Assembly: GCA_001938485.1 (NCBI GenBank)
Contig: MQRK01217052.1
Location: forward strand, 1 to 64,000
DNA: 64,000 nucleotides
Direction of reading: 5' to 3'
Source of the DNA: Girardia tigrina
Taxonomy: Eukaryota
Shown one piece after another: positions 6,107-61,670 of the stretch (positions are counted from its first letter, which is position 1; each line of letters starts with the position of its first letter). The notes beneath the pieces were generated by a model. It saw only the letters and a program-made list of their open reading frames with translations. It was not told the DNA's origin and searched no databases. Position numbers and translations under genes: made by a program.

Positions 6107-6674
6107 TACGAGGGGCGTTCCGAACGTAAGTGGAAAAAAGGGAGACGACACTACAAGAAAGCATTTGTTGGAGGAATACAATGTCATTCATCATCCTCAT
6201 CACTGTCAAACTTTTCAAGATACTTACCAGAAATTGATGGTCTCCGATACTTTATTCACATTTTCTACCGTGCTCGTCGTTGCTGGACGTCCACTCCTGT
6301 CCTCGTCGTCCAAGGATTCACGTCCATTTTCGAATTGATGCACCCAATTGTAGACGGCAGACTTTTGCAGGGCTCTTCCTTGAAACACATTTGATAAGCG
6401 GCGCACAATGTCAGACACTGGAGTATCCTCTTTCCAAAGAAAAAGATGATGGCACGCTGAGAACGTACTGCGTCTTCCATGTGTTAAACAAAAATGAAAA
6501 CACTGCCTAAGACAGTTTCCTCTATGCTGCTCACATGTTGCATGGACCAAAGCCACTTTTTCTAATGGGCTGGTAAGTAAATCACGCCACCACGCCATCT
6601 TTCCCCCTGTAAGATGCACACACGCGCACACTCGAATATAAGTATTTCCACTTACTTTCGGAACGCCCCTCGTA
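6107..6674 (-). mobile_element. Internally deleted mariner (irritans-type TACGAGGGG ends)
   Basis: TIRs TA-CGAGGGGCGTTCCGAACGTAAGTGGAAA / TTTCCACTTACTTTCGGAACGCCCCTCG-TA. N-terminal HTH (VYNWVHQFENGRESLDDEDRSGRP) is joined directly to the C-terminal GKYLEK; the catalytic domain is absent. Confidence 0.93.
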
Positions 6675-9487
6675 TAAGGTTTTGCATGTCATTGGCTGTA
6701 TCTGTGGACTTAATACAAAAGAGACATCTGAACTCACTCCTCGATGATCCTTAAAGATCGATGTGTTTCTTCAGCACTGATCATTTCTTCCTTCTCCGTC
6801 GAGATTCAGAGTCTCCGCTGCTAAATGACTTTTAGTTTTTTGAATATCTTTGAAATTTTAGGTGACTTCTTCAATTGTGTTGCTCATTTGGTTGATTTGC
6901 ACTGATTGATGCGGTGATTCTCACAATTTTAGCTCCGTATAGTTTGTAATATTTATTGAAATGACTTAATAACCACCCCTTTGTTTTATAATTTTTTACA
7001 GCAGGTGCATTTGAAAAGTTGTGTGCCTTCTTTGGTATTCATCGTCGTTCTTGTTTCTAACAGGTTGGAAGGGGCCACAGCTTTATGATCTTTCTTAACA
7101 CGTCTTTTAAGCTTCTTTTGCTCGGCGAACTCCTTATCGAATTCCTCTTTTATGGATTTTAGAAACTTTTTTCTCTCTTTCATTAGTTTGGCTACACCTG
7201 TTTTTGACAAATAACCCATATCTTTTTGATTAAGGAGTTCACATACGTCTAACGAGCTCCACTGGGCTTTCTATATATGATGTAATTCACAAAGCCATTA
7301 CAGACAGTCTTGGGTCGAAAAAATTCACGGTATATCTACTAACAGACATTCAGAAATGGGATAATTTCTTCATTCACTGATTTGTTTGATGTAAATAAAA
7401 TCTTCTTTTGCTCCAATCTTATAATACAATGTAAGACATCTGTTGGCACTAATGTCAAGTGGTAGCAGAAGTCCAATATCCAATATCATTGAAACAATTT
7501 TGACAATACTTAAGTTTTTTCAAATATTCTTCTCCGAAAATGATGTTTTAATTAATAGTTTTTGCTCTCCAGTAATTTCATTTTTTTAATAATTTCCTAA
7601 ACTTTATTTGTGTATTTAAATAATCCAATGTGACCTTAATGTTATCATCAATATGTTTGTTTGTGTACATGTTATCTTTCAAGTATCTTCTAAAAATTTT
7701 TAAACATGAACAGCGGTGTAAAATTGGAAGACAAATTTCGAACTTTTCGAACTAAGCTTATTATCATACAATACCTATATTTTTATAGACAAAAGTCTGT
7801 TGGATTATGTAGAGACCTGTGTCTGTTGTCTTTTTGTATTCAGTTAGATATCTGCAAACAATATCATTATAATTAAATATTAGAATCTTAATGTTTATTT
7901 TTTTTAATGTTTTAGTAATAAATATAAGATTTTTGAAATAATAAAACTTTGAAATTTTAATCTTAGTAAAACTTTCACTAAAATATTTTATGTTTATTGA
8001 TAATGTTTTTCGTCTTTTAAATTCTCCTGGTTTTCATTTTTTCTTTTTGTATCTTTATTAGTAGCCTTCCTCCACAAGACATTGGTAGAAAGAATTGTTA
8101 GAGTTATAAGAGAAGTGATAATATAATGATGTTTATATGAAGAATTATTTTTCCATTCATCGTAACTTGACGATTAAATTAATAATTTAAACATTTAATC
8201 CATTTATAAAAATAAATAATATTATTTAAAATTTATAAAAAATAATTATCAATTATTAATATTATTGGTATTATTATTCATATTATTATTATTATTACAG
8301 AAATTAAAAAAATATTTTTTAACTAATAAAATACACTTAAATCAAAAAGTTTTTTTATGTTCAATTATTTTTTATTATAAGTCAAAATAAGGTTTTATTA
8401 TGAAAATATTTTTTTTGTTTGAATTATATCTGTTGAAAATTATGACAGACAAAAATCCATAATTAGCGATTCAAAGAAAATTTGGAAAACGTGTAACCAT
8501 TATTTATTTTCTATAAGTTAATGGAACAATTAATATAATTGTTAGTTTTTGCTTGACGAAGTTTGGGGAAATTCATCTTAATTCTGAAATGATAATTCTT
8601 TCATTAAGGTTTATTTAGAATAATTATTCCCAATCTCGTAGTTAAATTATAAATATTTTAGTTTATAAATAAACAAAGAAATTATTTTACATTTTACAAA
8701 GATAAACTATATTTTGTGAAAAAGACTTTCTCTTTTTTATGATTGTTTGAGGTAAATTTATTTTAATTGACGAATAGTAGACATTTAAGAAAGAAATATT
8801 TATTTATAAAAAGTTTTTTATATATAAACTTAAATAATTATTAATTTCCAAATGAAAGTTCATCAGAAAACATTATTTTTATAATATATACTAGTAAAAT
8901 ATTTTAATAAATTTGTTTATTTTCTTTTTTGTTTTATTTTACTTCCAATCTTCTCTAATTACTAAGTATTTTCACACTCTACGTAAATCCCGATTACTTA
9001 CAGTCACGGAGCTGAAACTTTAAACAAATTAATTTCATTGGCTGACGCGAACTATCAATTATTCAGAGCTATACGACAATTCTAAAAATTTTGTACTTAT
9101 GGTAAGTTTTTCACATCTTTTGTAAAATTGAATAGGATTTTTATTTTATAAATAATTTAAATTTAATTTATATATTTCAAAATGATAATTTAGATGTCTT
9201 AAAAATTGTAATAATAATGTTTTTAAATTAGCTGTTTAGTATTCAGATATGGTTTTTCAAGTTGCTATTATTAATGAACGTTATTGTAAAATAAGGTGCT
9301 AATTTCTTTGAAGTGACCAAATTTATTTCTCAAAAGTAATAACAACATTTACTAAAACGTTTTGATGAAAACCACGTCCTTAGTGTTATCAAATTCACTA
9401 AAATATCTTTGCTACAAATATTTGTACGTATTTAAACAATATATCAAATACAAATTTTAATCGAAGCAATAAGAAGAATCAATAACA

Positions 9488-15260: not shown

Positions 15261-15381
15261 TTGCAATGAAAGATAGATTGAAATGGAAATTAAATTATTC
15301 AATCAATTTAATTATAGTTTTTTTTATTTTCATATATATATATATATATATTACATATATACATATAATATATACATATAA

Positions 15382-16640
15382 TATTAGGTTGGTCGAAAAA
15401 TAATGGCGGTTTTCGAGCTTTATACTTTGTTAATCTACTTTGATATGTATATAATTTTAAATGCATTAGTGTTAGATATTATTTGAAATCTTATGCCTAG
15501 CTGTATATTCCTATAGCCATTATTAACATATTGCTGTTATTTTTTTAGAATATTTATGGTGTTAAATTAATAATGGAAAAAATTAAAATTCGAGTAATTT
15601 TCTTGTACGAATTTAAACTGGGTCGTAAAGCAGCAGAAACGGCTCGCAATATCAATAAAGTGTTTGACAGGGGAACAGCTTCTGAGCGCACAGTACAACG
15701 ATGGTTCCGAAAATTTTCTGATGGAGATGAAAACCTTGAAGATGAAGAAGGTGATGGTCGTCCGGTTGCTGTGAACAACGAAAATTTGAGGACAATGGTG
15801 GAAACAGATCACCATACAACAATCAGAGAACTTGCAGATGGGTTGGGCATTAGTCCTGGATCATTTAAAACAACTTGGAAAAATCAAGAAACTTTATAAA
15901 TGGGTTCCACATGATTTGAATGAAAATCAAAAGAACCGACGCGGTGAAATTTGTTCTGCCAATCATCTTCGCAATAAAAACGATCCATTTCTTGATCGTA
16001 TTGTTACCTGTGATGAGAAATGGATCCTGTATGATAGCCGACGTCGATCTGCACAGTAGTTGGACAAAGATGAAGTACCGAAACACTTTCCAAAACCGAA
16101 ACTAACACCCCGTAAGGTTATGGTGACAGTTTGGTAGTGTGATGCTGGAATCATCCACTATAGTTTCTTGAATCCAGGTGAAACAATCACAGCGGAGAGG
16201 TACTGTCATGAAATTGATGAAATGCATAAGAAATTGAAAACCCTTTGTCCGGGATTGGTCAATCGAAAAAGTTCCATCCTTCTTCATGATAACACTAGAC
16301 CTCATATTTCAAAAGTGACTCTTCTATGAAATCCTGCTTCATCCACCATATTCACCAGACCTCTAGCCAACGGACTTCTACTTTTTCAGGCATTTGTACA
16401 ACTTCCTACGTGAAAAAATTTTCAAAAACCAAAATGATGCTCAAAATGCCTTCCAAGAATTCGTCNCTTCGAGAACCGATGCATTTTATGCTGATGGAAT
16501 AAAACAACTTGTTTCTCGTTGGTAAAAATGTATTGATGCCAACGGTTCATACTTTGATTAATAAACTTTTGTTTCTGTGAATTTGCACGACTTTGAAGTT
16601 TGTGTCCCATAACCGCCATTATTTTTCGACCAACCTTATA
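15382..16640 (+). mobile_element. Mariner (Hsmar1-like DD34D) transposon with pseudogenised transposase
   Basis: TIRs TTAGGTTGGTCGAAAAATAATGGCGGTT / AACCGCCATTATTTTTCGACCAACC.. with TA. Motifs WVPHDL, TCDEKW, HDN, HPPYSPDL; frameshifts and stops present. Confidence 0.97.
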
Positions 16641-17909: not shown

Positions 17910-19299
17910 TGATCAATCAAGAATTATTTATTAACATCCAACCATCAGAAATTAAATCGAATCTCTACAATATTTTGGACTGGTTTTCCTAGGAAATAAA
18001 TTGTTGTTAGTCCTATAAATTGTTCAATTCTCATCCTTGAATGTTTTCATTTGATTTGGAGATAGATTCATTTTTGACCTTCTTCCTCATCTGATAATGA
18101 TTTTTTTCTCAGTTGTTATTAACTAATTATATTGGTTTACGATGAAAACAGGGATAAAATTTAACTGAATGATCATTTTTACTATATAATTATTTATGTA
18201 AAGGAAGTTTGGCAAATAAAAAGTAGTTACTTTGTTCAGGTTCTTCAACAAGGTGTTTTAAATAGAAATAAGCACATATCATATGACCCTCTAGAATGAG
18301 TTCAAAGTGCATTAAAGTTACATCTGCTATGATAGCATTATTCTGAACTCCAAGTTAATAGAAATGTTGAATAGTTGTAAAATATTGAGGACCTAGTTCT
18401 TCTAACAATCTACGTGCAATATTGGCTGGTTGATTTTCCTCTTCAGCTAATAACGTTTCTTTTATTCAATTTGTAAGGGTGCCTCTTTTCGTTGATACGT
18501 TTTCTCCACAGCGACTGTCGTGAACTCAAATTGCTTTTTTTCAAAATTTATCTATTTTTATTTATTTTCCAAGTGTAATTTATGATTTAAAAAAGTACTG
18601 ACTTTATTATAATACCGTAGAATTTGTAAAATATAATTCTTAAATGAAAGAGCTTGGAATCATTCGCAGTATTGTAATGCTTTAATCACATTTTCAATAC
18701 AATGAATATGGATTATGAGACTGTATTTTAAAAGGGGTAATACAAAAGTTTAGATTGAAAATTAATGAAAATTGATTCGGATATCTTGTTTAATCCACCA
18801 ATATTCAAAGAATGAATGACTAGAAGGATCTTTTATATTATCGTCTGTTCAGGTATTTTATTCATCCTTCAGAATGGAAAATAAAAAATACGGATTTATT
18901 TTATTTTGATTGTTTTTCAATTCGATAAGAAAATTCATTTCTTTCAGTAAAATTAAAAATCAATATTTTAAAATTTATTTTTTTTCGTTAAATAATAATG
19001 TTTTGTTGTTTTATTAAGAATAAATGAAATTATTTTTGCTCTGATGTTTTAAATGAAAGAGATAAAATGGAACGAAATTCAAAGTATAAAAATTTTGTAA
19101 AAAAAATTTTAAAATAACACACATTATTTTCTGTTTTAAACTTTGAAATGAAATTGTTTTTATTTATAACTCAATATATAAATTCATTTATTAATATACA
19201 TTTATTAATATATTTTTAATAATATATATTTATTAGTATATAAAAAGTTTTATGCAGCAATTTTAACAACTATTGAGAAAGAGTATCGTCTGAGGCATT

Positions 19300-20074
19300 A
19301 ATAATTAAAGCGGTTGATCCAACAATATATTCAATCAAGTGACTTTATTTAAAGTTTTTGTGTGAAACAGCAATTACGCAATTGACTACAGCACTCTCTT
19401 CTAACATGTCCTTCTTCGTGACATGCACAATAGGTAATTTTTCGAACTTTAAAATTTCTTCTTATTTCTCGTTCTTTGAATTTCTCGTTCTTTGGTCTTG
19501 GTGTTCTTTTTTATTTTCCACTGTTCTCCATTCATTTTCTCTTTTTGTGTTATATACCGCTACAGGAGCGTTTCTTTTCTTTTTATCATATTCAAACATT
19601 CTCATTTGAATGTCTTCAATCTCTTCAGATTTCTTGACACCTCTAACAGCTATTTCTTTCTGTACGTTCTCATGATCTATCATATTAGCGTAGACCAAAT
19701 TTGATATTTCTTTTTTACCCAACTTTTTTCAATTAAATTTTCAATGGTTTCATCAGCCTTTCTAAATGTTACTGTTGGATCGCTGGATCCAATTCTCATT
19801 TCTTCCAGTTTCATCATTAGATCAAGGATAGATTTTTCCTTTGAAAACGCGGATCTTAGTTTCTCTTCACATGTTTCACCTGTTGCAGCTTCATATTTTA
19901 TTATGACATCCGGAGTCATATATGGTGTTGCTAATAAGATTTTTCTATTATCTGAAAATCCTGTTATCTTCGCATACCTGTTAAAGCTCGTTATGTATGC
20001 CTCAACTTTTGTTTCTGATCCATCAAAAATCTCCGGACCTCTAATGTTCGGAATCACGTGGTCGTGTGTCGCCA
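19300..20074 (-). mobile_element. Gypsy-type internal region: PBS plus frameshifted gag
   Basis: PBS TGGCGAC... at 20074 directly after the LTR. Gag PEIFDGSETKVEAYITSFNRYA, and zinc-knuckle relic YCACHEEGHVRREC near 19385-19430. Confidence 0.85.
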
Positions 20075-20587
20075 TATTAAGAACACCAACATGGCTTTTC
20101 AAACTTTTATTTTCAATAAAATTTGAATTGTCCTGTGGACAACTCTCAGCAAAACTTTCGTAATTCGACATCGTTCTAAATTGATAAATTTTTATTAATG
20201 TTTTTTAATAAACAATTATTAGAACAAATTTTTCGTTATTTTCAGATTTTATTTTTAAAGTTCAAATTTTGTAATTTTAGTAATAAGTTTATTTACATAT
20301 TAATTTTATTTTAAAAATTATTTTATTTAAAGAAAGAACATTTATTTAATTTAAAACTTAATTAAAAGCTATTTACTTTATTTAAATTTTTAATATTAAA
20401 ATTTTAAACGATTTGATATTTTTATGTTTTTTAAATATTTTAAATATTTTAAATATTTACTTTAAAATGTAAATTATACTCGAATAATTATTCAGTGAAC
20501 ATCTAAAATATCAATTTTCCATCTGGGTGGGAGAAACACATTTCCAAATACTAAACTCAACATACCAAATTTTAAATATTCCTCAGA
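20075..20587 (-). mobile_element. 5' LTR of the Gypsy element (defines the TGTGAGGAAT family)
   Basis: T(C)TGAGGAATATTT...CTCCCACCCAGATGG...AATAAA...GTTCTTAATA, immediately followed by PBS and gag. Confidence 0.85.
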
Positions 20588-21870: not shown

Positions 21871-22355
21871 NNNNNNNNNNNNNNNNNNNNNNNNNNNNNN
21901 NNNNNNNNNNNNNNNNNNNNTATATATATATATATATATATATTTATGAGATGATATGTAAATATATGTATATATATTTTCTTCATAGTAACATTGGTTT
22001 TAATATTTTTTGATTGTTTAAATATTTACGGTAACTCCGTATTATTTGGAGTTTTTTAAACTAATAAAAATTATAAATCGAGTTTATCGATTTTTTTCTT
22101 TTGTCGAATAAAAAATAAAAATAAATGAAAACTGGATCTTTTCCGCCAATTAATTTCGCGCGCGAGTTTTCTGACTGATGACCGATTCGACGGCCGTATC
22201 GTGGGATATATCGAGAGTGTTGTGCGCGACTCGTCGGCGATTATCGACGAAGAAATCATTCCAATTTATTCGGAGATTTCTCAAATCTATCGAACATTAA
22301 CAAAAGATTTTACGAGAAATTCACCTACAATTTATATTTCACACTGTTCAATACA

Positions 22356-22545
22356 ATGTTGGATTTGGTGAAACGGATAATCGCTATTATTTTGTGTACG
22401 ACGGAAAAGAAAACTGATGAAAACGAAAGCAGTGAACGGGATCCCGCCCTCATTAGGGCGAAAATTATTAACTATATGCTGAGAGGCCTGATTGAAGGTG
22501 ATAAAATCGAATTGACCTTATTCGACCAAACAAGTATGAGATATA
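22356..22545 (+). mobile_element. Repeat fragment, ORF1-like (non-LTR retroelement?)
   Basis: CCCGCCCTCATTAGGGCGAAAATTA (ER.PALIRAKI) is shared, inverted, with 25467-25492. Confidence 0.4.
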
Positions 22546-22867
22546 TTTATTTACATTTAGAAAATAATAAATTAAATAATTACAATAATGATAAAAATAA
22601 TAATAAAAACAAAAATAATAATGAATTAAATGATAATAATAATAAAAATAATATTAAAAAACAAGATGATAACGAATTTCCTCTCTCCCTTTCAACGAGC
22701 AATAAAAAAGGCGCATTTACTGCGCTGCTGCCACAACATTACTTATATGAGAAATTATTCTATATTATTACAATTTAAATTTAAATTTTATTGGATTATT
22801 AAATTTTCATTAACATAAAAAAAGTAAATTCTATCCAAATGGTCAGTGATTGCAAATACAATAAAGC

Positions 22868-25894: not shown

Positions 25895-26770
25895 TGAGAG
25901 AAATAATTGGTATTAAGAACATTTAAACAAGTCTCGTTTGAATGTTTATTACAATTACATTTAGAGTCATTAAGACTCTCAGAAGGTCTTTCATCGTTCG
26001 CCATAGTTTTAATTGGTTTTCTTATTTCTTTTTTTAATCATGATTATTCGAACAATTTTTCTAAGTTATTTTTAAAATATTTAGCCTCTAAAAATATTAA
26101 TTAAAAAAATAATAATTTTTACCATTTTTCGATAAATCTTAAAATAATAAAAATATCATCAAATTATTAAAAATGCATTTAATTTAAATTTTACTAAAAA
26201 ATATTAAACTTAATTTAAATTGTGTTCGAATAGTCAATCACTTTAAATTTAATAAAAAATACCAATTTCCATCTGGGTGGAGAATCACCATTCTAAATTC
26301 AACATACTTAAATCAACATACATTTACACATTCAAACAAATTAAAATATTCCTCATATTTGTAATGTTTGATGGTTTATGTTGATTTCAAATTGTGTCCC
26401 TCCTACCCAGATGGCTGATTAATAATTTAATTTATATTATCTGGAAAAAATGTAATGTTTTAATTTATTTCTAATTTTAAATAATTGTGAAATTTTAAAT
26501 AAATTGGTTAATTTCATTTACAACTTTTAAAATAATAAATTGAATTAATATTTTTAAATAATAAATATTGATTGTAATTTTACCAATCAAATTTGGAATT
26601 AGTATTTCAATAATTTATTTTATTTCTCAATTTACTCAGATAATAAGATTAAAGTCCATAATTAATTTATTAAACGGATGCAATCGTATGAAAGCTTTGA
26701 AGAAAGATTATCATGAGGACAATCAATTTTGTAATATTAATAAAAATGATAACAGTCAGTGTTCTTAACA
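25895..26770 (+). mobile_element. Solo LTR (TGTGAGGAAT family) interrupted by an inverted sister LTR
   Basis: Starts TGAGAGAAATA at 25895, resumes at 26358 with CTCCTACCCAGATGG box, ends GTTCTTAACA at 26770. Confidence 0.75.
25911..26357 (-). mobile_element. Solo LTR (TGTGAGGAAT family)
   Basis: Minus strand TATGAGGAATATTT...CCACCCAGATGG...GTTCTTAATA. Confidence 0.8.
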
Positions 26771-27116
26771 AAGATTAAAAAAATCTTAAACTAAACTTTT
26801 CATTTTAATTTTATATTCTTATAAAATTTGCGTTTCTATTATAATGTTCTAAATGATGAAATTCTCATTTGTTTGTTCAGCTTAAAGTATTTTCAACCCT
26901 AAAATTTACTAAACTTTTAATTTATGAAACATTTTTTTTACTCCTAAATTTCTTCCGCTATATTGTTATGTAGGAAATATTTTTAAATATTTTGAAAATT
27001 CTCTTGATTGAATAACTACTCTGTGACTACCTTAGTAAAGTTTTCACAAGAAGATTCTCAGATACAAGAAAATAAATATTTATCTCATCAACATTAGTCA
27101 TATATATAGTTATACA

Positions 27117-27328: not shown

Positions 27329-28509
27329 AAAATTATTTGTCTAAATAAACGAATAAAATATTATTCCCCAAGTCAAACCACAGTATTCAAGCTTTTCTTT
27401 TCAAGTTTATCAAAAAAAATTACAAATTTTTTTTAAAAAATCAGAACGTGTTTTCCTTAACTTTTTTACGTGGATAAATTTTATGTTTATTCGAAAGAAT
27501 AAAACTTGTGATTATTTTAAAATTTTTTCATAAAAAAAGAAAAAAATTAACACAAAATAATTCCAAAAATAATAATAAACTTCCAGTTGAAACGTAAAAC
27601 TCAAAGTTGTTTTTGTTGTCAAGTAAATATTTTGATGGAAATAATTGAGAGAAATGAGAAAAAAATATTTTTAAAACTAAAAATACTTAACTGACATTAA
27701 TTAAATGTGGAAAAAACCTTTTTTTTCTCCTAAAGTTTGTTTTCTATGAAAGTAGCAAAACAAAAAAGATAATCATATAATATTTCAAATAAAAAAGAAA
27801 CGGAAACAAAGTTCTCGTGTATGAAAGACTATTTTTTCGAAAAAAAATCATTTTCCATTTTTTTGAAAATAAAGTAAATATTAAATATTTAAAAAATGGA
27901 TTGGAAATTCTCTCTGTGCAATTAGAAAAAATATTTTAAAGGAAACTGGAAAACTTTTTGAAACAATAATCCAATTAAAAGTATATTATGTTTTATATAA
28001 TAATAATTAAATTTATTTGTTTCATTTAAATTCAATTTGAAAAAAAAATTATTTTGCTTTTTTTATTTTTTCATCGTTTTTTTCTTAATATTTACATTTT
28101 CGTCTACTGAAAATATTTTATTTTCGTATATAATAAAATATTTTAAAAAATTTCTTTCAAAAAATCAATAATAAAAATCAATAAAGTCACGACAATTTTG
28201 CTAAATTTATTTGTATTTTTAATTTTTTTAGTCAGCAAATAAATTTGATTAAATATAATTTGATTAAATATAATTTATTTTGTATTTCGTCATATTTGGT
28301 TTTTAACGACGTTAAATAAAACTAAGCGTTCAGTTTAGTTTAAAAACTTAAATTAATTGACTAAGAATATTTAACTGATAAAATAGATATTTTAAATAAA
28401 TTATGTGAAAAAAAAACTTCTCTGAAAACCGAACTTAATGCAATTATTTTAAACGAATAAACGCCATTTAAAAATATATTTTATGATAATTTATTTCGAC
28501 GTAAATGTA

Positions 28510-28820
28510 ATATGAGCATAAATGATTTTAAGATTTTGTGCAGCCATTTTAAAAATTATTGGTAGAGAGTGTCGTGTGAAGGATTGTTGATAAGATCATG
28601 TGATCCTAAAATCAATGTTCAAACAGCACTCTCAACTAATTTGTTAAGATTTTCTGATTAGACTTACGTAAGTGATTGCACAATCATTCATTTATTATAT
28701 AGAAGCAATAAAAAAGAACATAATCAGTGATCTGATGATGACGGTTAAACCGTCGAAATATATTATCATAAAATATATTTTTAAATGGAGTTTATTTGTT
28801 TATAATAAAAATTGCCATCT
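28510..28820 (+). mobile_element. Penelope-like element 3' end / pseudo-LTR
   Basis: FKILCSHFKNYW*RVSCEGLLIRSCDPKINVQ...* is a GIY-YIG C-terminal tail homologous to 56200-56330 and 46660-46780; a hammerhead follows. Confidence 0.8.
28727..28769 (+). ncRNA. Minimal type I hammerhead ribozyme (intact core)
   Basis: GTGAT-CTGATGA-T-GACGG-TTAAA-CCGTC-GAAA-TATA-TT-ATCAT: stem I, CUGANGA, perfect 5-bp stem II, GAAA, palindromic minimal stem III, NUH site. Confidence 0.88.
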
Positions 28821-28829
28821 TTTTACAAG

Positions 28830-29560
28830 TTAATTATTTTAAAATTATTTAGTTCAAAGGGCACTTTTTTGATTGGATGTCTCATTTTGCACATTTGAGC
28901 TTTATAAAATATATCTTCCACAATTAATGTCAAATACTACTATTGGTTTTACAAATAACTTGAGTAGATATTTTAATTTGCCTTTATTTGCAGTTTTGTT
29001 GATAAAAATCTTTTCTAAATTTAGTTATTTCGGGATTCTACCCGTTTGATTTGGATAAAAAATGTTATTCGATTGTCAGTAATCGGTATTATATTCTTTT
29101 TCTAAAAAAATCTCACGTGTTTTATTATTTTCTGTTTTATGTCTTCTTATTTCATTTCGTAATTTTGTTTTTTACATCAAAAATATTGAATTTTGTTTGT
29201 GAAAAAACCTCTCAATAACCAGAACAAAAAAATATGAGTGCATTTCATGAGCACATAAAATATAATTATGTTACTCTTTTTAAGAGATATAAAAGAAATA
29301 AAAATAAAAAAACACACCGTTTGTATAACATTTTTTTCATTTTTGTGACTATTAATTTCGACGGTATAACGGCTATCGTCAGGTCTCAAGAAAAAGTGAA
29401 TTTAAAATCTGCTCATATAGGCAAGCAGTGATTGCATAATCAATGTGTTGTTGAATCATCTAAACACGCTCAATAGGGTTTTCGAGAGACTCGTTTGCAT
29501 ACTAATCTTAGAATTCTCAGGTTTCGTCTCCTGACTTAAAATTATTTGTTTAAATTTTGA
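28830..29560 (-). mobile_element. Penelope-like remnant (pseudo-LTR plus downstream sequence)
   Basis: ORF tail ...KISMQTSLSKTLLSVFR* resembles the other PLE C-termini; 29340-29485 is an inverted homologue of 32113-32250. Confidence 0.65.
29345..29387 (-). ncRNA. Hammerhead ribozyme with damaged stem II
   Basis: GAGAC-CTGACGA-T-AGCCG-TTATA-CCGTC-GAAA-TTAA-TA-GTCAC; both core boxes intact. Confidence 0.7.
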
Positions 29561-29899
29561 AAACCCTTTTGAGTTAGGAGCGGCGATGTATCGTTTAATG
29601 ATGCATCGACAGACTGCATCGTTAACAATGCATCGAAAATCCTTCATCGTTAAATGATGCATCAAAAGCCTGCATCGTTAAACAATGCATCAGAAAAATA
29701 ACATTTAAATATAAAGCAGCTAAATTAAAATCTAAATTTTTATTTTGTGATTGATATTTGCTATTGTGCTACATTAATGGTAAAGAAAATTTACAAAAAA
29801 GAAAACAAGAAAATTTCAAATTTATTTTTGGAAAATTGAATCAAACTATAAAAGGCACATTATTCCTTTTCTTCATCTGTCTTAAGTTCTCTTTTATAT

Positions 29900-30370
29900 T
29901 ATTAAGAACACCAATTTGACTTTTTATATTTTTATTTAAACAACAACTTTGATTGTCCTTAAGACAATCTTTGTCAAAACTTTCGTACATTTGCATTCTA
30001 AGCGCAATTGATTAATGAATTAATTCTCATTATTTTTTTAGCAAATGGGGAAATAAATATTTTATTAAAATATTTATTCAAAAGTTATTGGATAATAATT
30101 AAAATGATTATTAATTATTTAAAAATATTAATTTGATTTATTTATTAAATAATATAAAAATTAATTAACTTATTTAAAATTTTAAAATTATTTTAATTTC
30201 AAATAATTTTAAAATTTTAAAATGATTTGAAATTAAAAATAAATTTAAACATTACATATTTTTAGATAATAAAAATTAAAATATTAATCATCCATCTGGG
30301 TAGGAGAGACATTTCCAAATCAACATACACATTCAAACGCAAAACATCAAACATTTAAATATTTCTCCCA
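29900..30370 (-). mobile_element. Solo LTR inserted in the hAT ORF
   Basis: TGGGAGAAATATTT...GTTCTTAATA with 5-bp TSD TATAT (29895-29899 / 30371-30375). Removing it restores the hAT frame KLVYI|KENLRQ. Confidence 0.9.
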
Positions 30371-31586
30371 TATATAAACCAGTTTTTAAACTTTGGATGC
30401 TGACAAATTTGTTCTTCTCTCACCACATATATTTCCAGCTGTGGAAAACACTCGTTCAGAGCTGGAGGAAGCTGTTGGAATCGCCAATAGTCTCTTTGCA
30501 AAGCGAACAAGTTTCGGATAATTAAGTGCTTGATTTTTCCAGTAACGAAGTATGTCACCATTATCGGCAATCGCTGTTGTTGTTAAATAGTTTTCTAATT
30601 CCGCCTTGATTTCCGCCATCAAGGAAGTCACTACTTCCAGGTTATCTACCACTTTTCCAAAAGTTTCAACCTTCAAACTGATGGAAGACCTTCTTATGTA
30701 TGCAGTTGTTGTGCTTTTTAGTGGCTGTGTGTGTTAGTGGCTTGTTGTATGTCATCAAGAGAGGATTGTGATGTGTGGGGTGAGGGGGTGTTCTTAAGTT
30801 CGGCCTTGCACATGTTGAGCACAGCTTCTTACAGGGATACTTTTGACATGTGGTACCTTTGCCCAATGTCATGTAATGTTGGTCCTTTGTAACGTGGATC
30901 CAACATGTTTGCATATGCGTATTCTAAAACTTGAGCTCCATTTTCAAGAAATCTGTCATTCATTTCTAACAAGTAATGATCAACGACTTCTTTCATCATG
31001 GGATTGGGTGAATTATGTGATATTGACTGCAATTCGTCTTCCAGATCAAAGAGCTTCAGAATGATATGGACTATAGAGACCTTGTTCTCTGCACTTGCAT
31101 GGTGGGAGAGTTCTTCAAATATTTCAACAGTTGTTCAATTGTTCAATCTCCTCTTCATCTGGTAGTTTGTTGACTAGATTTTGCGAAACATCTTTTCTGC
31201 AACAATATTGATGGCAGGCGGTAGCTCATTGATAGAATGTAATTGATAAAGGTCACTGTTCAATCTGGTTGATCAACTTTGAACTATTTTGGTAATTGTG
31301 ATATCTGGATTTTTTGATTCTTCGGCAATAAGTGAATCCTCAAACTCCTGAGAATGATTGAAGAAGCTAACCAGCCCTGTCATCTTATCACTTAAATCTC
31401 TAATTTTAAATTTTTGGCATCTGGAAGAAAAACAATTTAATTTAACTAGAAATAAAACTTCATTAAATATTATTTAAACAAATAATATTATGACTTGGAA
31501 ATTGTTTTATAATATAATTTTTTTAAGATCAAAATAAATTTTTTTCTAGTAAATTTCATCACTGAATATTGTAAAAACTAATATAT

Positions 31587-31840
31587 AAACTAGTAAATTA
31601 GTATGTAATGTTTATGTAAGTATTAAACAAATCTGAAATAATAATAATTTGTTAATATTAAAATAAAATTTCATTGCTTTAAATATAAAAAAAATAAATA
31701 TAAATATTTATCATAAATTAAATTTATTATGAGAAATTATAAACAAACTAGTAAATTAGTCTGTAATGTTTATAAAAGTATTAAACAAATCTGAAATAAT
31801 ATTAATGTATTAATTTTAAAATAAAATATCATTGCTTTAG
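31587..31840. repeat. Direct duplication of ~95 bp inside the hAT
   Basis: AAACTAGTAAATTAGT...CATTGCTTTA at 31587 and 31745. Confidence 0.85.
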
Positions 31841-32202
31841 GAACAAATGAAAATATAACTTTCCTTAAAAAAGGAATAAATGAAAACTACTGAAAATAGA
31901 ATTGTACTCTAAAGTTCCTCGAAAATATTTGTTTAAAAAACTAAAATTGTAGTAATTATATTGTTGAGTTATTGTTTATGTGAACAAAAGTGTGATTTCA
32001 TTATATGTTAGATAACAAAGATATGCAGTCTTTCGATGCATCGTTTAACGATGAAGGTTTTTCGATGCATCGACCATATTTAACGAAGTACGATACGATG
32101 TGTCGCTCCCTACTTTTGAAGGCTTTTAGATGACATAACAAAACATTGATGATATAATCTCTCCTTGCCTATATAAGTCAATTTAAAATACATTTTTTTC
32201 TT

Positions 32203-32245
32203 GGGACTAGACGATGACGGTTATACTGTTGAACTAAATTGTCCT
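32203..32245 (+). ncRNA. Decayed hammerhead ribozyme in a Penelope pseudo-LTR
   Basis: GGGAC-TAGACGA-T-GACGG-TTATA-CTGTT-GAAC-TAAA-TT-GTCCT; both core boxes mutated. Confidence 0.55.
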
Positions 32246-32795
32246 TAAAATAATTCTGTTTTACAAGTGGCGTGTTTTGACATATAAGCATAATTTTCCA
32301 TTATTCTTTAATTTTATAAATAGAAAAATAGTGTTCCATTATCGAAATTCTCTCAAAAAATACATGAAATGAGTACATACATAATAATTGATAAATTATT
32401 TAGTCTGATTCTTTGTCATTGACTTCAACCATTGAAAAGCTTGCCTCAAAATTAGATCTCTTCTTCATATGATCTTCTGTTATATCAAGTTTGAGTTCAG
32501 TTATTACTTATGTTAATTACATCGAAAAGTGCTTTGAAAGAAGCTGAATTTAATTAGGACCCTTTCTTTTGACGGTATGAACAATTAATAATTTGTTCTC
32601 AAGTGTCATTCTTCTAATCTTTCTGTTATAATATATTTGGTTTTTTGTTAAGTTCTTATTGTGATCTAATTTCTTCTTCTAAAATTTTCATATTTAGTTA
32701 TTTACAAATCTGTGACCATACATTTATTACAAAAATTTAATACAATAGATGGAATCATTAACTCAAAGGAATGGAATTTGAATTTTATAAAATTT

Positions 32796-33154
32796 ACCGT
32801 AATTTTACGCATATAAGTCGCTCATTTTTCCAGTTTTTCTATGCCCTGAAAAAAGCCTGCGACTTATACACATGTAATATCTTGAACATATACTAAATAA
32901 ATAAATAAAAATTAGAAATACTTTACAAGTAAAATGACTCAATTTAGCATATTAATAATTCGTATAAATTTATATACAATTGTATTTTAGAAGATAAATT
33001 TAATAAATATTATGAATAAATAATTTTATTGAAATTAATTTAATTTTATGATATGTTTTTTTGAGCAATAACCTTTTTTAAAAAAAATAGATGCTAAAAA
33101 AAATAGATTTTAAAAAAAAATTTTAACTGTGACGTAATTGCGTAAAAAACGGTA
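32796..33154. mobile_element. Pogo-type MITE
   Basis: TACCGTAATTTTACGCATATAAGTC ... TGCGTAAAAAACGGTA inverted ends; TGCGACTTATAC subterminal motif. Confidence 0.7.
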
Positions 33155-34581: not shown

Positions 34582-35017
34582 TGTTAGAATATTTATTACA
34601 TTCACTTTTTGAATCATCTCTATGACAAAACGTAACAATGCCTTCGTTTAAATTCATGAATCAATATTCAATACTTCTCATCCAACATCTGAACTAACTT
34701 GACCAGATATATTTTATTTAAAATATTTACTTTAAATGTTAGTGGTTAAAATAAAATTACTTTTTATTATCATTTAAAAATATTAATTCGATTTATTATT
34801 TACAAAAGTAAAATTAATAAAATCATTTAAAATTTATAATCATAATCAAATTAAAAATTTGAAAATTAAATCTAAATTTAAATAAATTAGTTTCTTATTA
34901 TAAGAATCAAAATATTAATCATCCATCTGATTAGGAGAGGCACAATCCCAAATCAACACACAACATTGAAACATTCAAATAACACACAAAACATCAAAAT
35001 TCCAAATATTCCTCACA
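34582..35017 (-). mobile_element. Solo LTR (TGTGAGGAAT family)
   Basis: TGTGAGGAATATTTGG start, CTCCTAATCAGATGG box, ends ~TTCTAACA. Confidence 0.75.
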
Positions 35018-35103
35018 TAAATAAAATGTATTAAGCACCGTTTCAGATGAAACCACTCTTTTTGCTAAATTGTTTCTTCATATTTCCTACAAGATTTTGT
35101 ATT

Positions 35104-40100: not shown

Positions 40101-41710
40101 TATCGCTTATAAAAGAAAGAATAGCTATTAGATTGTACTGATAGTCATATAATAATTTATTTTATTTTTACCTTGCATGGTAATATTATATTGTATATCG
40201 AATTTTTAAATTTTGAATTTTGAAATGTTTTAATTAATTTTTCATTATGAGGTGGGGGGAATTATTCAGTCTAGTTTCTTCTACTCTTTCTACAACTTTT
40301 ATTTTTTCTTCTACTTTGGTTAAGTTAAATTCTTTCTTTTGATAGGTGGGAATAACAAAAACAAATTAAAATAATTTAAAATACAATGAATAAATATATA
40401 ATAAATATACACAAATATATATGAATATAACATAATTAATATAACAAGTATTTATGATTTATAAATTAAAGATAATTTAGTATTAATTATAAATAATGAA
40501 AATAATTTTTAGTTAATAATATATAATTAACATAAATAAACATAAATAAATGAATGAATTATATGCAGTCAAAATAATGGGTGAGGAAAAGTCAAGCTAC
40601 ACTAATATTTAATATAATGATTTTTTAAAAATTGCATACTTTATAATAATCACAAATATAATTAAAAGTATAACTGAATTTATTTTATTTTTTTATTTAA
40701 ATATATATATATATGTGTGTAAAATTAAATTGTTAATTGATTTTTTGATCTTTTTAATTTTTAATAGAAATCAAAACAATAAAATTCTAATTTAAATCCC
40801 AAAATGTGCTCTAATTATTTTAATAGCAATATTTTGAGCATAAAAAATTGAATAACAATGATTCGAATTAAATATATGCAATTAATTATAACCCCGAATC
40901 TTAATTTCTCACGTTTCAAAACAAAATATATAATATATAATTATGAAATTTCTTTCTGATTCCATGAAAAAGAGAGTAGGATTTTCGTTACAAGAAAATT
41001 TTACTATCTTCGGAAAATCGAATGAAAACAAAATGAATTTACAAATGATTTATATAGAAGAAATCAAATAGTGAAAATGTTTATCTCTTTAGATTAAACA
41101 TTTTTTAATATATTTGAATTTATAGAACGACTATACATTAAGTATATATTTGGATATATTAGATGATAAAAAATAATTTTAAATATTTAGTATTCATGGT
41201 TATTTCATTTCCCATTTTGAATACTATATTGTATGTAAGCGTCTTGCTTCACGACATTTCCTATATTGTTGCTTTCTAACCCGCGTAGTCTAAATTACAA
41301 GGCATCAATTTAGGCAAAGCTCGTCAATGTTTAAAGTTTTCCCCATTCTCCTTTCAGTTATAAAAATGTAATACAATGGTGTAATTTAACAGAGAACCTA
41401 ATTTTATGTGATATGCGAACAAAAAGTTTAAATCAGATAGTATATATTATAGTATAGATAGTATCAGATTATCAATATTTACAATACAGCCTACTATAAT
41501 TGGAAAAGAATTTTGAAGAACAGAAAACTTATCCTTTGAAAAAGAAAATGTTCTATTCTTTCATTGCATCTAATGGCCCTACTTAATGCACTTGGCTTTG
41601 AGTGTTCAATCTTTCGGGTTTTGTAATGATGATTTGATATCCATGACAATTATTTGTATAAATTTATAAGTGTTTATGTCACAATTATATGACACAATTA
41701 CAAATATATA

Positions 41711-42145: not shown

Positions 42146-42699
42146 ATAATCAAACATCTAAACATGTTCTATGATCATGTATATAAGAACATGTATATAA
42201 AAGAAAAAAAGAAAAAAATTGATACCGATTAATATAAAGCACTTGATATGGTTTTTAACTGAAATATATAACTTTTTGTCTTTGTCTTTTACTTTTCTTA
42301 ATTTTGTAGAAAGTGTTAATAAACTAAGTTCGTTGTTAAATCAAAACGTTTAATCATAATCTTTTCGTAAAGGAAAAAAAGGATAAAATAGTTCTAAAAA
42401 TCAGAGTTTTGTTTCTACTGATGGTTCAAAGAAAGAAATTGAAGTACCATTAAATATTATTAGCATGCTAAAATATTATGTAATTGTACCTTATTTTGAA
42501 TGATATAAAACTTTAGAAAATGTTATTAAAAGCAACTATTGAATGAAATTTAAAATGATCTCAGAAAATATATTCAATAATAAATCAAATTTATTTGCAA
42601 CACTGTTTTGATATTGTTAATGAATATAAATGTAACTGTCACGATTTAACATTTATATGAGAGACTATGATTTTAAAAATTTGAAAATAAATAAAAAAT

Positions 42700-43000: not shown

Positions 43001-43426
43001 TGTGAGGAATACTTTGAATGGTGCTTATGTTATGTTGTTTGGTATGCGGTTTTATGATTGCGTTTCTCCAACTCAGATGGAAGATTGATATTTTAAATAT
43101 TTTAAAACGTCGAAGTATTAATTCAATTTTAAAGTTTAAATAACTAACTTTAAAATTAAATTAATATATCATAAATAGTATATTTAAAACTTTTTTAAAA
43201 TAATTAAAATTATTTTTGAAATTTATATTATAAATTATTTTGAAATAAAATTATAAATAAATTGTAATTTAAATTTGTTTAAATAATAAGACATTTGGAA
43301 ATAGAACTAAATTTATCAATCAAGAACGATAACTAACTATGAAAGTTTTATGGAGAATTGTCCTAGTAGCGATTCAAGTTTAAATACAAATAAAAGTATT
43401 AAAAATTCCAATTATTGTTCTTAATA
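43001..43426 (+). mobile_element. Solo LTR (TGTGAGGAAT family)
   Basis: TGTGAGGAATA...CTCCAACTCAGATGG...AATAAA...GTTCTTAATA with perfect 5-bp TSD ATAGT. Confidence 0.92.
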
Positions 43427-43666: not shown

Positions 43667-44530
43667 ACAACAACTATTATAATTTAATATTTGAAAGTAT
43701 TATAAAAAATTATTTTTTTAAATTTGTTAGTGTTATAAAAAAGTTATTTTTAAGGGAATAATTTTGTGATTTATTTTAATTATTTAAGATAATATTGGAT
43801 AATAATAGAAAAAGGTTTTTTAAATTGAAGTTAAAGATTTTAAAATTTGAAACGTGTGACATTTTGAATTTTTAAAAATAAATTTCTAAAATAGAATGTC
43901 AAATAAATATATATATATATATATTAAAAAGCAAGTTTTGAAAGATTAAGTATTAAAAAAAATTTTTTGCATTATTTCTAAGTCAAAATAATACATAATT
44001 TATGTATCGAATGTCGACGGTTCTATATTTTAATCAAAGCAAAGTCTAAGTATTATATATCCTTTAATACTTTATAAATTTTTAGAAATTATTATTATCA
44101 GAATAATAAAGTGTACTCGAATAACAAATTCTCAAACGTGAAAGCCAAAAAGCGCTATATTATTTTTTCTGTTTTACAAATCGAAACGTTTAATTCCCAA
44201 GATAATTCTCCTCTTTCGTCTCAAATCATTTCAAAATAATTTTATATATTTTTTCTTTGGTGATTCGTCTTTTATATTTCTTTCTATTTATTTGTATTTG
44301 ATTATTTGGATTCAATTATTAAATATTTTAAAATTTTGTTTTAAAAATCTAATAACAATATAGAATAAATAAATTAAGTTTCTTTAAATCAAATGGCAAT
44401 TTCGTCATTAAACAAAAAATAACACCATTTTAATTTTAAATTTTTATTCGAAAACATGTTTCGCCACTTTTGTGGCATCTTCATTTCTGTATTTAATTAG
44501 AAAGTTATTGTTTATATAGAAAGATGACCA

Positions 44531-45593: not shown

Positions 45594-46499
45594 TTATTGA
45601 AAAATATTTAAAAATTAGAGGATTTTTTTAATTCTTTAAATTAACATTTTAGTGAAGGTTAAAAAATCTTTCGGGTACCCTTCTATAATGATTTTTTCTA
45701 TTTTTAGAAAATAGATGTTTAAGTTTGACTTTAGAATTTTTTTTATTTTGATAATTTATTATTTAATAATTTTATATTATTTTTTTTAATTATCATTTAT
45801 CATTTTAGATCTGCTTGGAGTTTAGATCAAAGGAAAATGTTTTACTATATCAATGTAAAAATATATTATGGCAATAGAAATCATGTTATAATATAAAAAA
45901 TTTAATTGTTCAGTTTTCAACAACGAAAAATAATATTGTACTAAATAAAGCTACCACTATATAAAACGCTTCACGTTTATTTGATTCGATTTTTCAGATT
46001 TATTACTAGAATTGTCTGGAGCATGCGTTTGATCAGTAATATTCAGTACTGTCTCTAAGTTTCTCTCCTCAGTCTTCCGACACACTAACGTTTGACAAAT
46101 CTCCATGAAAAGGATCCATATTCTTTTCGCTTCTTACAACGATTTCTGTACCATTTATAAAGCATTTGTTCATTTCATTTGTGTCACTTAACAATGTTCG
46201 TTTCGTTCAAAATTAATTTGTTTGTTTGTAGTTATTTAAAACAGATTTATTTTTCCATTCATAAAAAATAATTTAAATATTAAAAATTTATACATTTTTT
46301 AATATTTATATTATTTTTTTAAAATATTTTTAGTAATAACGAATTAATAATAAAAAATCAACAGATTTTCAAAAACATTTAAATTTATTTTAGCACATCT
46401 GTCGTTGCGTGCATTTTTCGTGCACGCATTTGTCGGGTCCCATTTGCTCGTATCTAAACTGCGTACGAATATTATGTTTGTTCAAACAATATCAATTTT

Positions 46500-46930
46500 C
46501 ATAAATAATAACATCATTGAAAAAACTGAATTTTATTCCTTCAAAAAAAATATTTTGGTAGTTTTTTCACCATCATCAGGCTTAATTAATAATCTTGTAA
46601 CAATTAAAATGATGATTATATAATCAAGTGATACAATAACTAATAAAATAATTTTAACAAAGTTAAGAGGCACTTGTTTGGGCATTAATTGATGAATTAT
46701 GTAATTTAATCAATAATGCTTCTCAAGAAACTCTTTCCCAATAATTTTTAAAATTACTGCACAATATTTTAAAATCAGTAATTTTCATATCCGATCTAAA
46801 AACTTCCATAAGCCTAGCAATCTTACTGCCATTTTCTAATCATTTGTGCTCCTGAATCTACAGATATGATGAGACATCTCTCCAATGTATGGAGCATTCA
46901 TTACAAGAAAACTGATTGCAAGAATAAAAT
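46500..46930 (-). mobile_element. Penelope-like GIY-YIG remnant plus pseudo-LTR
   Basis: QFSCNEC..YIGE motif and DFKILCSNFKNYWERVS*EALLIK...IN; homologous to 56195-56440. Confidence 0.8.
46546..46582 (-). ncRNA. Decayed hammerhead ribozyme
   Basis: AGC-CTGATGA-T-GGTGA-AAAAA-CTACC-AAAA-TATT; positional homologue of 56400 with GAAA changed to AAAA. Confidence 0.6.
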
Positions 46931-47479
46931 TTAGTTTTGTCAATAATGTTATTATTTGTGAAAATAAACATTTGATATTGTTTTTTACCTTTTTAATATC
47001 AATTTTATTTGTCATTCAAAATTTACTGTTTTTTTTTGTTCAAATTTATTTTTGGGCCAACACTTTCGAGGGTTGACAAAATTGGGGACATAAAAATATA
47101 TATAATTTTTTTAAAAAATACAAAAGAAAAATTGGATATCAAATTCCTCTGGGCGACATTAAATAAATCAATTTAAAATTTAAAGCTTAGTATATATTCA
47201 GGGCATTTAATTTTCGTATTGTATAGTCTGCTAGACGGAAAAAATGTCTAGTAAAAATATAGATAAAGTATAACAGCAGTTCTTCAAAAAGAAAAAATAG
47301 CGAATTTACTGTATTATTTACATGGATCGCTGATTTATTATCTGATAAATAATTAATTATTTTTGATTTTTATTTTTCTCGGCTTTTTTACAACTTCATT
47401 AAATTTTTCGTAATTGAAACCGAATGTTTAATTGATTTTTTTGATCAAATATTTTGTTTTTTTTATTTTTAAAAAATAT

Positions 47480-47955
47480 ACGTTTACCTCAATCTTTTTA
47501 ATCCTCAATATAATGGCAAAATAGAAATTTTTAACCGCTATCTAAAACAGACTCTGAGAACAAAATGCCAGAATCATAACTGGTTGGAAAAACTACCGGA
47601 GACAGCGCTAGCTCTCAGACTTAAACCAAATTCCACAGATAAAATTTTTCCATACGAAAAGTTAACAGAAAGTAAATATAAATTCAAATTATTTAGTAAA
47701 AGATCAGATAAGAAGTCATCAAAATTAGAACATAGTCACACAAATAAAACCGCTTTTATCAAAATACGGAACACAAACAATTTTAACGAAAGATATGAGG
47801 GACCATACGAAGTAACAAATTCAAACACAAATACCATCACCATTTTGAAAAACGGAAAATCAAAAACATATAACATTCGTAACGTGAAACTGATCGAGTA
47901 AAATTACATTATCTTAAAATCAAAGAATTTTATCACTCCGTGTACTTAGGGGGGG
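47480..47955 (+). mobile_element. Gypsy integrase 3' region and polypurine tract
   Basis: NPQYNGKIEIFNRYLKQTLR...WLEKLPETALALR...YEGPYEV; PPT AGGGGGGG just upstream of the LTR. Confidence 0.88.
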
Positions 47956-52270: not shown

Positions 52271-52892
52271 TGAATTGACATTTAGACTATCTAATTCTAC
52301 AACAACCTGATGTTTATTGTGCTAATAAATGTTCCTTATTACTTTGTATTTATTAATTTATTTTGTTTATGGAAAATATCCACTCGATTTCATTCTTCCT
52401 TACAATATATATGTGTGCGTTTTACGGCAAATATGTTTAAAGAGAAACATAAAATGTCTGCAAAGTTGATCAAAAATATTAAATACCGTACCCCTCTTTT
52501 GAAAAAAATGTTATAAAAGAATCTTAAAATAGTTATTTAACGGAATATAATTGGTTTCCCGATCTGTTTAATAATCTTTGCAAATCGAATTATTAATTCA
52601 GCAATTATTTAATAATTTTTACAATCAATTAATCTTTTTTTAATTTACTAATTATTTAAATTAATTTATGTAAAAAAAACTTAAAACCTTATTTCAAACA
52701 ATCATATTACATAAATAACAAAATAAAGATTTACAAAATCCCAAAGAAATAAAAGATTTTTTAAGAATATTTATTCAAGAGTTATTTCTCTATTGGAAAA
52801 AAATAGAAAACGCAGCATTTTTCGATAAAAGAATGAACAGTGTTCTTCATAACTCGAATTTACCCCTCATTTAGTTTCTAAGTTGTTGTTTA

Positions 52893-61628: not shown

Positions 61629-61670
61629 ATTGTACATATTTTGGAAATTTTTTTTTCTATCATCAAGAAT
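61629..61670 (-). ncRNA. Heavily decayed hammerhead relic in a pseudo-LTR of the 63270 Penelope family
   Basis: ATTC-TTGATGA-T-AGAAA-(A)n-TTTCC-AAAA-TATG-TA-CAAT; upstream 61730-61790 matches the sequence after the PLE stop at 63575-63625. Confidence 0.4.

Follow-up and report, generated by a model that had tools for sequence, protein, structure and literature searches.

The hammerhead motif at positions 28727–28769 on the + strand of the window (the whole stretch of DNA that was analysed, 64,000 nucleotides) is very probably the pseudo-LTR hammerhead of a Penelope-like element (PLE), carried in a dead insertion of about 375 bp and most likely silent there. Every part that the original prediction had described is present between 28727 and 28769, with the cut after 28764. 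Hammerhead positions follow the general numbering for this ribozyme. The motif, which lies entirely on the + strand, opens with GTGAT, read from the sequence as the 5' strand of stem I (28727–28731), followed by the catalytic box CTGATGA, C3 to A9 (28732–28738, likewise read from the sequence), and by T 28739, an extra unpaired U that is typical of PLE hammerheads and is a U in all seven copies of the window. Stem-loop II (28740–28754) consists of GACGG (28740–28744), the loop TTAAA (28745–28749) and CCGTC (28750–28754), with G10.1-C11.1 as the basal pair and pair probabilities of 0.95–1.0; its 5 bp can be extended to 6, leaving a loop of 3 nt. Then come the GAAA box (28755–28758), the palindromic loop 3 TATA (UAUA in the RNA, 28759–28762), closed by the single pair A15.1-U16.1, and TT 28763–28764, which ends the AUU triplet with the predicted cut after 28764 (for the NUH rule of the cleavage triplet see PMC6908138). 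The 3' strand of stem I, ATCAT, occupies 28765–28769 and gives a stem of 5 bp, four Watson-Crick pairs and a terminal G-U. The core boxes CUGANGA, GAAA and UH are arranged round the three-way junction with no mismatch, and the order of the strands makes the motif a type I hammerhead with a 1-bp helix III and a palindromic UAUA loop, for which a dimer is predicted to form an intermolecular helix III of 6 bp from the palindrome AUAUAU.

The features that define the PLE variant are found together at this position, namely the type I topology, the extra nucleotide between 9 and 10.1, the G10.1-C11.1 pair, a short stem I, a palindromic 15.2–loop 3–16.2 region (UAUA), and a location behind a PLE ORF in a pseudo-LTR. 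The stem sizes also match the PLE type and not the canonical type I, which has a tertiary contact between loops 1 and 2 on a 6-bp stem I and a 4-bp stem II. The strict min-HHR descriptor (GAAA-NN-UH with loop 3 absent; PMC4209133, Fig. S7) permits two nucleotides between GAAA and UH, unlike copy A, the motif at 28727–28769, which has four, and a 2-nt register would break stem I at its first pair. Because of this spacing, the motif reads as a PLE hammerhead variant with a 4-nt palindromic helix III and not as a min-HHR in the strict sense; the earlier description as a minimal type I hammerhead of Penelope therefore holds for the type I fold in a PLE pseudo-LTR, and falls outside the strict descriptor in the word minimal. 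PLE pseudo-LTR hammerheads with an extra nucleotide and a palindromic helix III were published by Cervera and De la Pena in 2014 (PMC4209133), where truncated solitary copies are described by the thousand per genome and opposite-strand pairs at 100–700 bp. The class has thus been known since 2014 and the locus is ordinary for such genomes, so that the motif loses the surprise with which it was first put forward. As a further solitary PLE hammerhead, with thousands per genome and at least seven in the window, copy A carries little weight, while the locus is a clear teaching example of a PLE end with its truncation, inverted arm, ribozyme and repeated ORF start.

A descriptor requiring at least 4 bp in each of stems I and II finds the motif as its single match on both strands of the whole window, and 300 dinucleotide-preserving block-wise shuffles of the window gave one match in total, and none when 5 bp were required in both stems. 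The Infernal-type check that had been proposed turned out negative, as Rfam gave no match at the gathering score in the whole window and three matches at E<=10 in 28400–29000, hammerhead families not being among them, which indicates that Rfam overlooks hammerhead variants with a palindromic helix III such as the one at 28727–28769. The absent Rfam match could also be expected if a hairpin and two short boxes had been arranged by chance in AT-rich DNA, as could a minimum-energy fold that differs from the hammerhead, but the likelihood of such an origin is negligible given the rate of one match per 300 shuffles and the agreement with the published PLE hammerhead consensus. A chance arrangement is already refuted by the like position of the motifs behind PLE endonuclease tails, seen both in the window copies and in unrelated contigs, and by the covariation among the copies.

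The 64-kb window contains at least seven hammerhead motifs, copy A and six diverged relatives (B–G), of which B, C, F and G were located by sequence similarity, and D and E only by a relaxed descriptor that rewards pairing. Copy B (56394–56442, +, core start 56402) has an intact core, a 6-bp stem II and a UAUA loop like that of A, with only two contiguous pairs in stem I, and lies downstream of an open endonuclease tail at 56196–56330. Copy C (46539–46587, -, core start 46579) is decayed and follows a longer GIY-YIG remnant at 46640–46914, and it has an inverted arm of its own (46916–46983 against 46484–46544, 81%). Copies D (44445–44492, -, core start 44484) and E (57855–57902, -, core start 57894) both carry the loop CAUG; in D the C3 is lost and no endonuclease tail was detected upstream, and in E position 3 is a U. 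Copy F (29342–29390, -, core start 29382) has an intact core, the loop UUAA and a stem II broken at two pairs; it belongs to a second PLE 3' end that faces copy A at a distance of about 570 nt, with its endonuclease tail at 29459–29515. The stems of copy G (32200–32248, +, core start 32208) pair, there are three core mismatches, and the copy is 74% identical to F. An endonuclease tail is thus located upstream of the hammerhead in four of the seven window copies (A, B, C and F). Among the matches listed for the window by the covariance model R1, 32 in number, the model recovers by construction the seven copies from which it was built, and gives one plausible extra copy at 57986–58033 (+, E 0.027), a decayed motif back to back with copy E, and one weak, decayed candidate at 61625–61674 (-, E 0.017).

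Pairwise identity among six of these copies (E omitted) is 58–76%. In the 7-row alignment 79.8% of the cells are paired, compared with 63.9 +/- 3.0 in shuffled alignments (0 of 500 reach the score) and 31.5–46.3% in slid controls, figures that are inflated by the choice of D and E with a pairing descriptor, and in the alignment A2 one gap is misplaced in D and one in E. Both-sided changes are present in 11 of the 13 pairs over the seven copies (stem I 5/5, stem II 4/5), and loop 3 is palindromic in five of them with three different sequences, UAUA, UUAA and CAUG. The covariation of stems I and II and of the palindrome among the seven window copies, which is the stem check that the original prediction had asked for, came out positive and indicates from the sequences that the PLE family was selected as a ribozyme. 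Copy A is the best preserved of the seven, with core changes found in four of the six siblings.

Upstream of the motif, 28503–28661 (+) encodes the C-terminus of a PLE GIY-YIG endonuclease, about 52 codons and truncated at the 5' side, with an in-frame stop at 28563–28565 and the terminal stop at 28659–28661. A search with this tail, with X at the internal stop, found P0003 (E 1.7e-14), one protein among three longer candidates, and the tail agrees with its extreme C-terminus at 35 of 46 positions (76% identity). In Pfam, P0003 exceeds the cut-off for GIY-YIG and gives a partial RVT_1 match that falls below its cut-off, and its look-alike clusters are eukaryotic throughout. Its relatives are proteins of 800–850 aa that start with the reverse transcriptase, and in P0003 and these relatives this is followed by a C-terminal GIY-YIG domain with invariant Cys, Cys, His and His in the endonuclease, a set of residues described as a mark of PLEs (PMC8557442); the tail at the locus retains only the segment past them. 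The short tails P0001 and P0002 gave no Pfam match, both being too short, and the PLE identity is therefore taken from the homologue P0003. No extra zinc finger was seen by eye in the linker of P0003–P0010, which points to the Penelope/Poseidon type, a clade assigned from motif content next to a quick tree that was built from 47 proteins, chosen out of 373, and included no named reference element. Between the terminal stop and the hammerhead lies a non-coding pseudo-LTR spacer (28662–28726, +) that puts the stop 65 nt from stem I and 70 nt from the core, which confirms both the endonuclease tail and the distance of about 70 nt after the PLE ORF stop claimed earlier; the corresponding distance from stop to core in copy B is 71 nt.

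The endonuclease tail is directly preceded by an inverted copy, truncated at its 5' side, of the 3' end of the element itself (28444–28501, -), with 54 of its 58 bases matching 28751–28808 (93% identity) and the junction at 28501/28502. This arm begins within the 3' strand of stem II and contains GAAA, a non-palindromic loop, the UH and the 3' strand of stem I, with the CUGANGA box absent, and it is thus half a motif; judged by eye, and allowing for one 3-nt indel, it may reach about 28436. The original prediction had overlooked this arm, as well as the stop inside the endonuclease frame and the six relatives of the motif. An inverted 5'-truncated copy beside the 5' end is given as the usual PLE arrangement (PMC8557442), and 5' truncation together with an inverted pseudo-LTR, a character of EN+ PLEs, is seen here in the 58-bp arm that abuts the truncation. 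Such arms recur in the window at copy C, at copy E and at 50901–50960. Downstream of the hammerhead the remaining pseudo-LTR (28770–28817, +) ends between 28808, where the ungapped inverted match stops, and about 28817, where similarity with copy D stops, so that the whole insertion measures about 375 bp, with four differences between its 58-bp arms. A search for a target-site duplication gave only 9-mers of AT-rich sequence away from the ends of the insertion. The insertion is a dead, decayed, 5'-truncated PLE remnant.

The 58-bp arms, with their 93% identity and a pairing probability of about 1.0 in read-through RNA, could also be taken as the ends of a 365-bp inverted-repeat-flanked unit that moves non-autonomously in the manner of a MITE or a retrozyme, or that folds back and gives rise to small RNA directed against PLE ends, and in which the hammerhead is retained as a component; for animal retrozymes an origin from PLE pseudo-LTRs has been reported (bioRxiv 10.64898/2026.07.22.740005). 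This is very improbable, however, as a second copy of the unit is absent from the window, every sibling has its own junction, the inverted arm holds half a hammerhead, and the insertion has no detectable target-site duplication. Retrozymes are moreover tandem direct repeats, and no array is present at the locus, nor were tandem hammerhead repeats of 150–450 bp found in 27500–33000 or in a self-comparison of the window.

The surroundings are AT-rich (13–35% GC per 2 kb) with many transposon remnants, and the published distribution of such elements (PMC8557442) suggests that the host is an animal. Among 13 long window ORFs scanned with Pfam for a host gene near the motif the only strong matches were transposase domains, and among 86 shorter ORFs, picked from 198 of at least 55 aa, a single one matched, a helix-turn-helix beside a mariner ORF; short exons could escape these scans. 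The description of the surroundings as otherwise dead DNA is borne out to the extent that no host gene was found nearby among the window ORFs scanned. A promoter scan gave 14 sites against 6.1 +/- 2.8 in shuffled sequence and was not used, the bacterial consensus on which it is based being meaningless for a eukaryote.

Hammerhead-like motifs are also found on PLE contigs outside the window. When bacterial and archaeal genomes were scanned, 10 loci were obtained, six of which are short contigs with PLE-like ORFs, and these are probably eukaryotic carry-over in bacterial bins; the bins holding L001, L003 and L005 have titles naming Poribacteria and Cyanobacteria. All three contigs with enough 3' sequence (L001, L003 and L005) have a hammerhead-like motif past the endonuclease stop, at L001:1637, L003:1541 and L005:1266, in a U3-A8 variant with a 2-nt helix III. 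When R1 was run on the six contigs it scored L001 with E 0.093 and L003 with E 0.52 and missed L005, and since these scores are weak or absent, the three motifs rest on a pattern scan and on reading by eye.

The closest published counterparts of copy A are the hammerheads of Drosophila Penelope (D. virilis, D. rhopaloa, D. elegans and D. ficusphila; PMC4209133, Fig. S3), which are described as type I with an extra nucleotide, the G10.1-C11.1 pair and UAUA, and which are likewise located in the pseudo-LTR of an element with a reverse transcriptase plus a GIY-YIG domain at the C-terminus (PMC4209133). The string UAUA-UU, with U at the cleavage position, is common to copy A and to D. rhopaloa, D. 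elegans and D. ficusphila (PMC4209133). Copy A differs from them by a stem I of 5 bp instead of 2–3 bp, by U instead of C as the extra nucleotide and by a stem II without a bulge, and the stem sequences are unrelated (PMC4209133). With the min-HHR of metazoan PLEs it shares the core boxes, the stem sizes, the extra nucleotide and the palindromic 15.2–16.2 region, and also the genomic setting, these being described as mostly solitary at truncated PLEs with opposite-strand pairs, here A and F at about 570 nt (PMC4209133). The relatives of P0003, with a reverse transcriptase followed by a GIY-YIG domain with CCHH, the 5' truncation and the inverted copy agree with EN+ Penelope/Poseidon PLEs, but unlike the full elements in PMC8557442 the locus keeps the last ~52 codons, with its clade taken from motif content only. 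Non-LTR retrozymes and amphibian satellites have, according to PMC7229834, the same type I fold with a 1-bp helix III and a palindromic tetraloop, and the axolotl HHR_Amex1 is efficient only as dimers; in contrast to copy A, which is single and attached to an endonuclease tail, retrozymes form tandem arrays of 150–450 bp with contacts between loop 1 and loop 2 (PMC7229834).

The folding predictions bear on whether copy A would cleave in place. The bare 43-mer gives a predicted probability of 0.24–0.33 for stem I, and every context of at least 66 nt gives 0.00, because two competing hairpins form, one masking the CUGAU box together with stem I's 5' strand (28723–28736, +, pair probabilities 0.7–0.99) and one of 9 bp masking the cleavage triplet and the palindrome of loop 3 (28756–28780, +, 0.84–1.0 without the inverted arm). 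Stem-loop II is the sole helix that forms in all contexts without the arm, and in read-through RNA the folding model pairs the arm across the cleavage site with a probability of about 1.0. Imposing the hammerhead shape has a predicted cost of 8.0–8.3 kcal/mol, or 21.9 with the inverted arm in the transcript, the siblings likewise pay 3.4–6.8 kcal/mol, and the palindrome duplex is predicted to be worth only -0.8 kcal/mol. As the model leaves out Mg2+, tertiary contacts and dimers, and as the siblings also pay, this misfolding penalty lowers the odds of activity and is no proof; free cofolding produced duplexes other than the intermolecular hammerhead dimer. A tandem partner on the same strand for a cis dimer was not found, the inverted arm being half a motif, F antisense and G core-defective, with G (3.5 kb) and B (27.7 kb) as the nearest same-strand copies; this concerns activity and not origin, most published copies being solitary (PMC4209133).

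The published systems point in the same direction. For a single S. mansoni motif cleavage was reported as not found, with dimers cleaving at a low level (PMC4209133), and a review states a dimer requirement and low rates for PLE hammerheads (PMC6765202). PAc, the Poseidon element of Anolis carolinensis, is unlike copy A in being full-length and in having been studied biochemically, and its hammerhead is described as cleaving only with the element's protein, as dispensable for insertion in vitro, and as having no reads that end at the cut site (PMC11167929). Copy A, a single copy, predicted to be misfolded and without a known transcript, is most likely silent at its locus, and the term potentially active would apply only to the excised RNA, as a dimer or together with the PLE protein. 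What can be kept of the earlier claim of a potentially active catalytic RNA is thus the complete core and the palindromic loop suited to a dimer, activity at the locus being unlikely for a motif that is solitary and predicted to misfold. The accompanying statement that the palindromic loop allows cleavage as a dimer agrees with the complete core and with a loop built for dimers, as in the published class.

There is a slight possibility that copy A is nevertheless active in vivo, in which case cleavage of read-through RNA at 28764 would be assisted in trans, by a different PLE RNA with a UAUA palindrome or by the PLE protein, and the transcript would be trimmed or destabilised. The core without mismatches, the two perfect stems and the retained palindrome would fit, when four of six siblings have core changes, as would the UAUA loop shared with copy B, the frequent occurrence of U at the cleavage position in published PLE hammerheads (PMC4209133) and the protein-assisted cleavage demonstrated for PAc (PMC11167929). 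Against this stand the solitary position, with G core-defective 3.5 kb away, B at 27.7 kb and F on the opposite strand, the competing hairpins and the inverted arm, the failure to find a host gene among the 13 long and 86 shorter ORFs scanned, and the lack of reads at the cut site reported even for PAc (PMC11167929). Nor does preservation speak for activity, as 33 constrained sites at about 3.4% divergence per arm would survive by chance with a probability of 0.31, and the intact core of copy A therefore requires no selection. A silent copy remains the preferred reading.

A9, the extra U and G10.1 together form an AUG (28738–28740, +) located 26 nt before the cut, a candidate start codon of the parent ORF. 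Its frame is open to 28833, past the end of the element, and in four of the six copies it is open for 27 codons, with four stops in total vs 16 and 18 in the other frames. In the background, 1452 of 8948 window samples are open for 27 codons, and at least four open copies out of six would be expected by arithmetic at about 0.008, for copies that are not fully independent. A start of the form M-x4-(S/V-type)-K-Y is found in three of 95 full-length relatives, two of them among the four closest, and the peptide at 28738 is similar, the pattern having been picked after the sequences were seen. In PAc the ORF also starts at the beginning of stem II, with the same spacing of 26 nt from the start codon to the cut, and the insertion likewise stops shortly into the repeated ORF start; reverse transcription of PAc is described as starting 111–118 nt into the ORF, and here the end is about 70–80 nt past the AUG (PMC11167929). 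We lean towards the core AUG being the start codon in this PLE family. BLASTP and Smith-Waterman comparisons of the AUG peptides with the N-termini of the relatives gave nothing significant and preferred no frame, and when 95 N-termini were compared with the window by tblastn, 28738–28830 was not matched among the best 25 rows. A second ATG at 28785, 21 nt past the cut, was rejected as a start, since in copies A, D and G a stop ends its frame at codon 7, within sequence that is still homologous. Whether or not the AUG initiates, the motif lies in the part of the pseudo-LTR in which the ORF start is repeated, and not in a plain 3' UTR.

A U is present between 9 and 10.1 in all seven window motifs and all three outside motifs, and nine of the ten read AUG. 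In L001, L003 and L005, however, the core AUG is closed by a stop within six codons, and in L005 the actual N-terminus (E 4e-8) begins 24 nt past the cut. The idea that the extra U provides the start codon in all PLEs was rejected on account of these early stops and of the A or C published for that position. The core AUG is the only lead of wider reach here, with a start codon that the cut would remove or unmask, and it is conceivable, though unlikely, that it makes PLE hammerheads a translation switch beyond a processing site. If so, the AUG would initiate here and in PAc and the cut would remove the first nine codons and turn mRNA into template, whereas in L001, L003 and L005 the AUG would be an upstream decoy that is lost on cleavage, the new 5' end then lying about 20 nt from the true start. 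A link between ribozyme cleavage and translation start has been described in RNA viruses (PMC13725137), but A or C occupies that position in many published PLE hammerheads (PMC4209133) and insertion of PAc did not require cleavage (PMC11167929). In the Creative Commons texts of PubMed Central and bioRxiv the PAc observation was found and a general proposal of a translation switch was not.

As to the origin of the locus, reverse transcription kept only the last ~52 endonuclease codons, the spacer, the hammerhead and about 50 nt beyond it, with the inverted copy of the last 58 bp placed in front of them, and decay has followed, seen in the four differences in 58 arm positions and the stop in the endonuclease. 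In an intact parent, as judged from the family, two motifs of a partial tandem transcript may have paired through AUAUAU into a double hammerhead, or alternatively the element's protein may have folded a single motif, and the parent RNA would then have been cut after AUU. Since the next ORF begins within the pseudo-LTR and the core AUG is probably the initiator, a cut 26 nt past this AUG would separate the start codon from the remaining RNA.

The window holds at least 10 PLE fragments. A second PLE family is represented by two remnants, one at 50630–50913 (-) with 50901–50960 (+) and one at 63247–63583 (+), which are 85% and 62% identical to P0009 and still include the endonuclease segment with CCHH; in the first, a piece of the C-terminus lies inverted at the junction, beside a (TA)n run and a gap. 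More scraps of PLE ORFs are located at 19244–19337 (+), 42264–42587 (+), 7554–7850 (-) and 41504–41637 (-), with no hammerhead detected. A repeat with a 28-bp period, rich in ATGCAT palindromes, precedes both F (29590–29697) and G (32023–32094) with about 90% identity over 48 bp, and suggests a non-autonomous PLE derivative; F and G point apart with a hAT remnant between them. A near-palindrome of 152 bp (63566–63717, 84%) adjoins the PLE remnant at 63247–63583 and partly recurs at 61717–61796. DNA transposon remnants of the pogo/Tc5 type, the Tc1 type, three mariner elements with terminal inverted repeats (two of them 89% identical) and hAT are present in the window, the positions being 1718–2839 (+), 2870–3933 (-), 6105–6676, 15381–16640, 52892–54215 and 30386–31473 (-). 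The ORFs at 19680–20204 (+) and 47473–47901 (+) look by eye like a gag-like piece and an integrase C-terminus, respectively. Among the long ORFs only that at 22182–22778 (+), which encodes 198 aa with an Asn-rich stretch and has no Pfam match, might be a host exon. A dispersed family of AT-rich repeats, 67–76% identical, is located at 20075–20549, 26366–26789, 29882–30378, 34709–35025 and 43059–43310.
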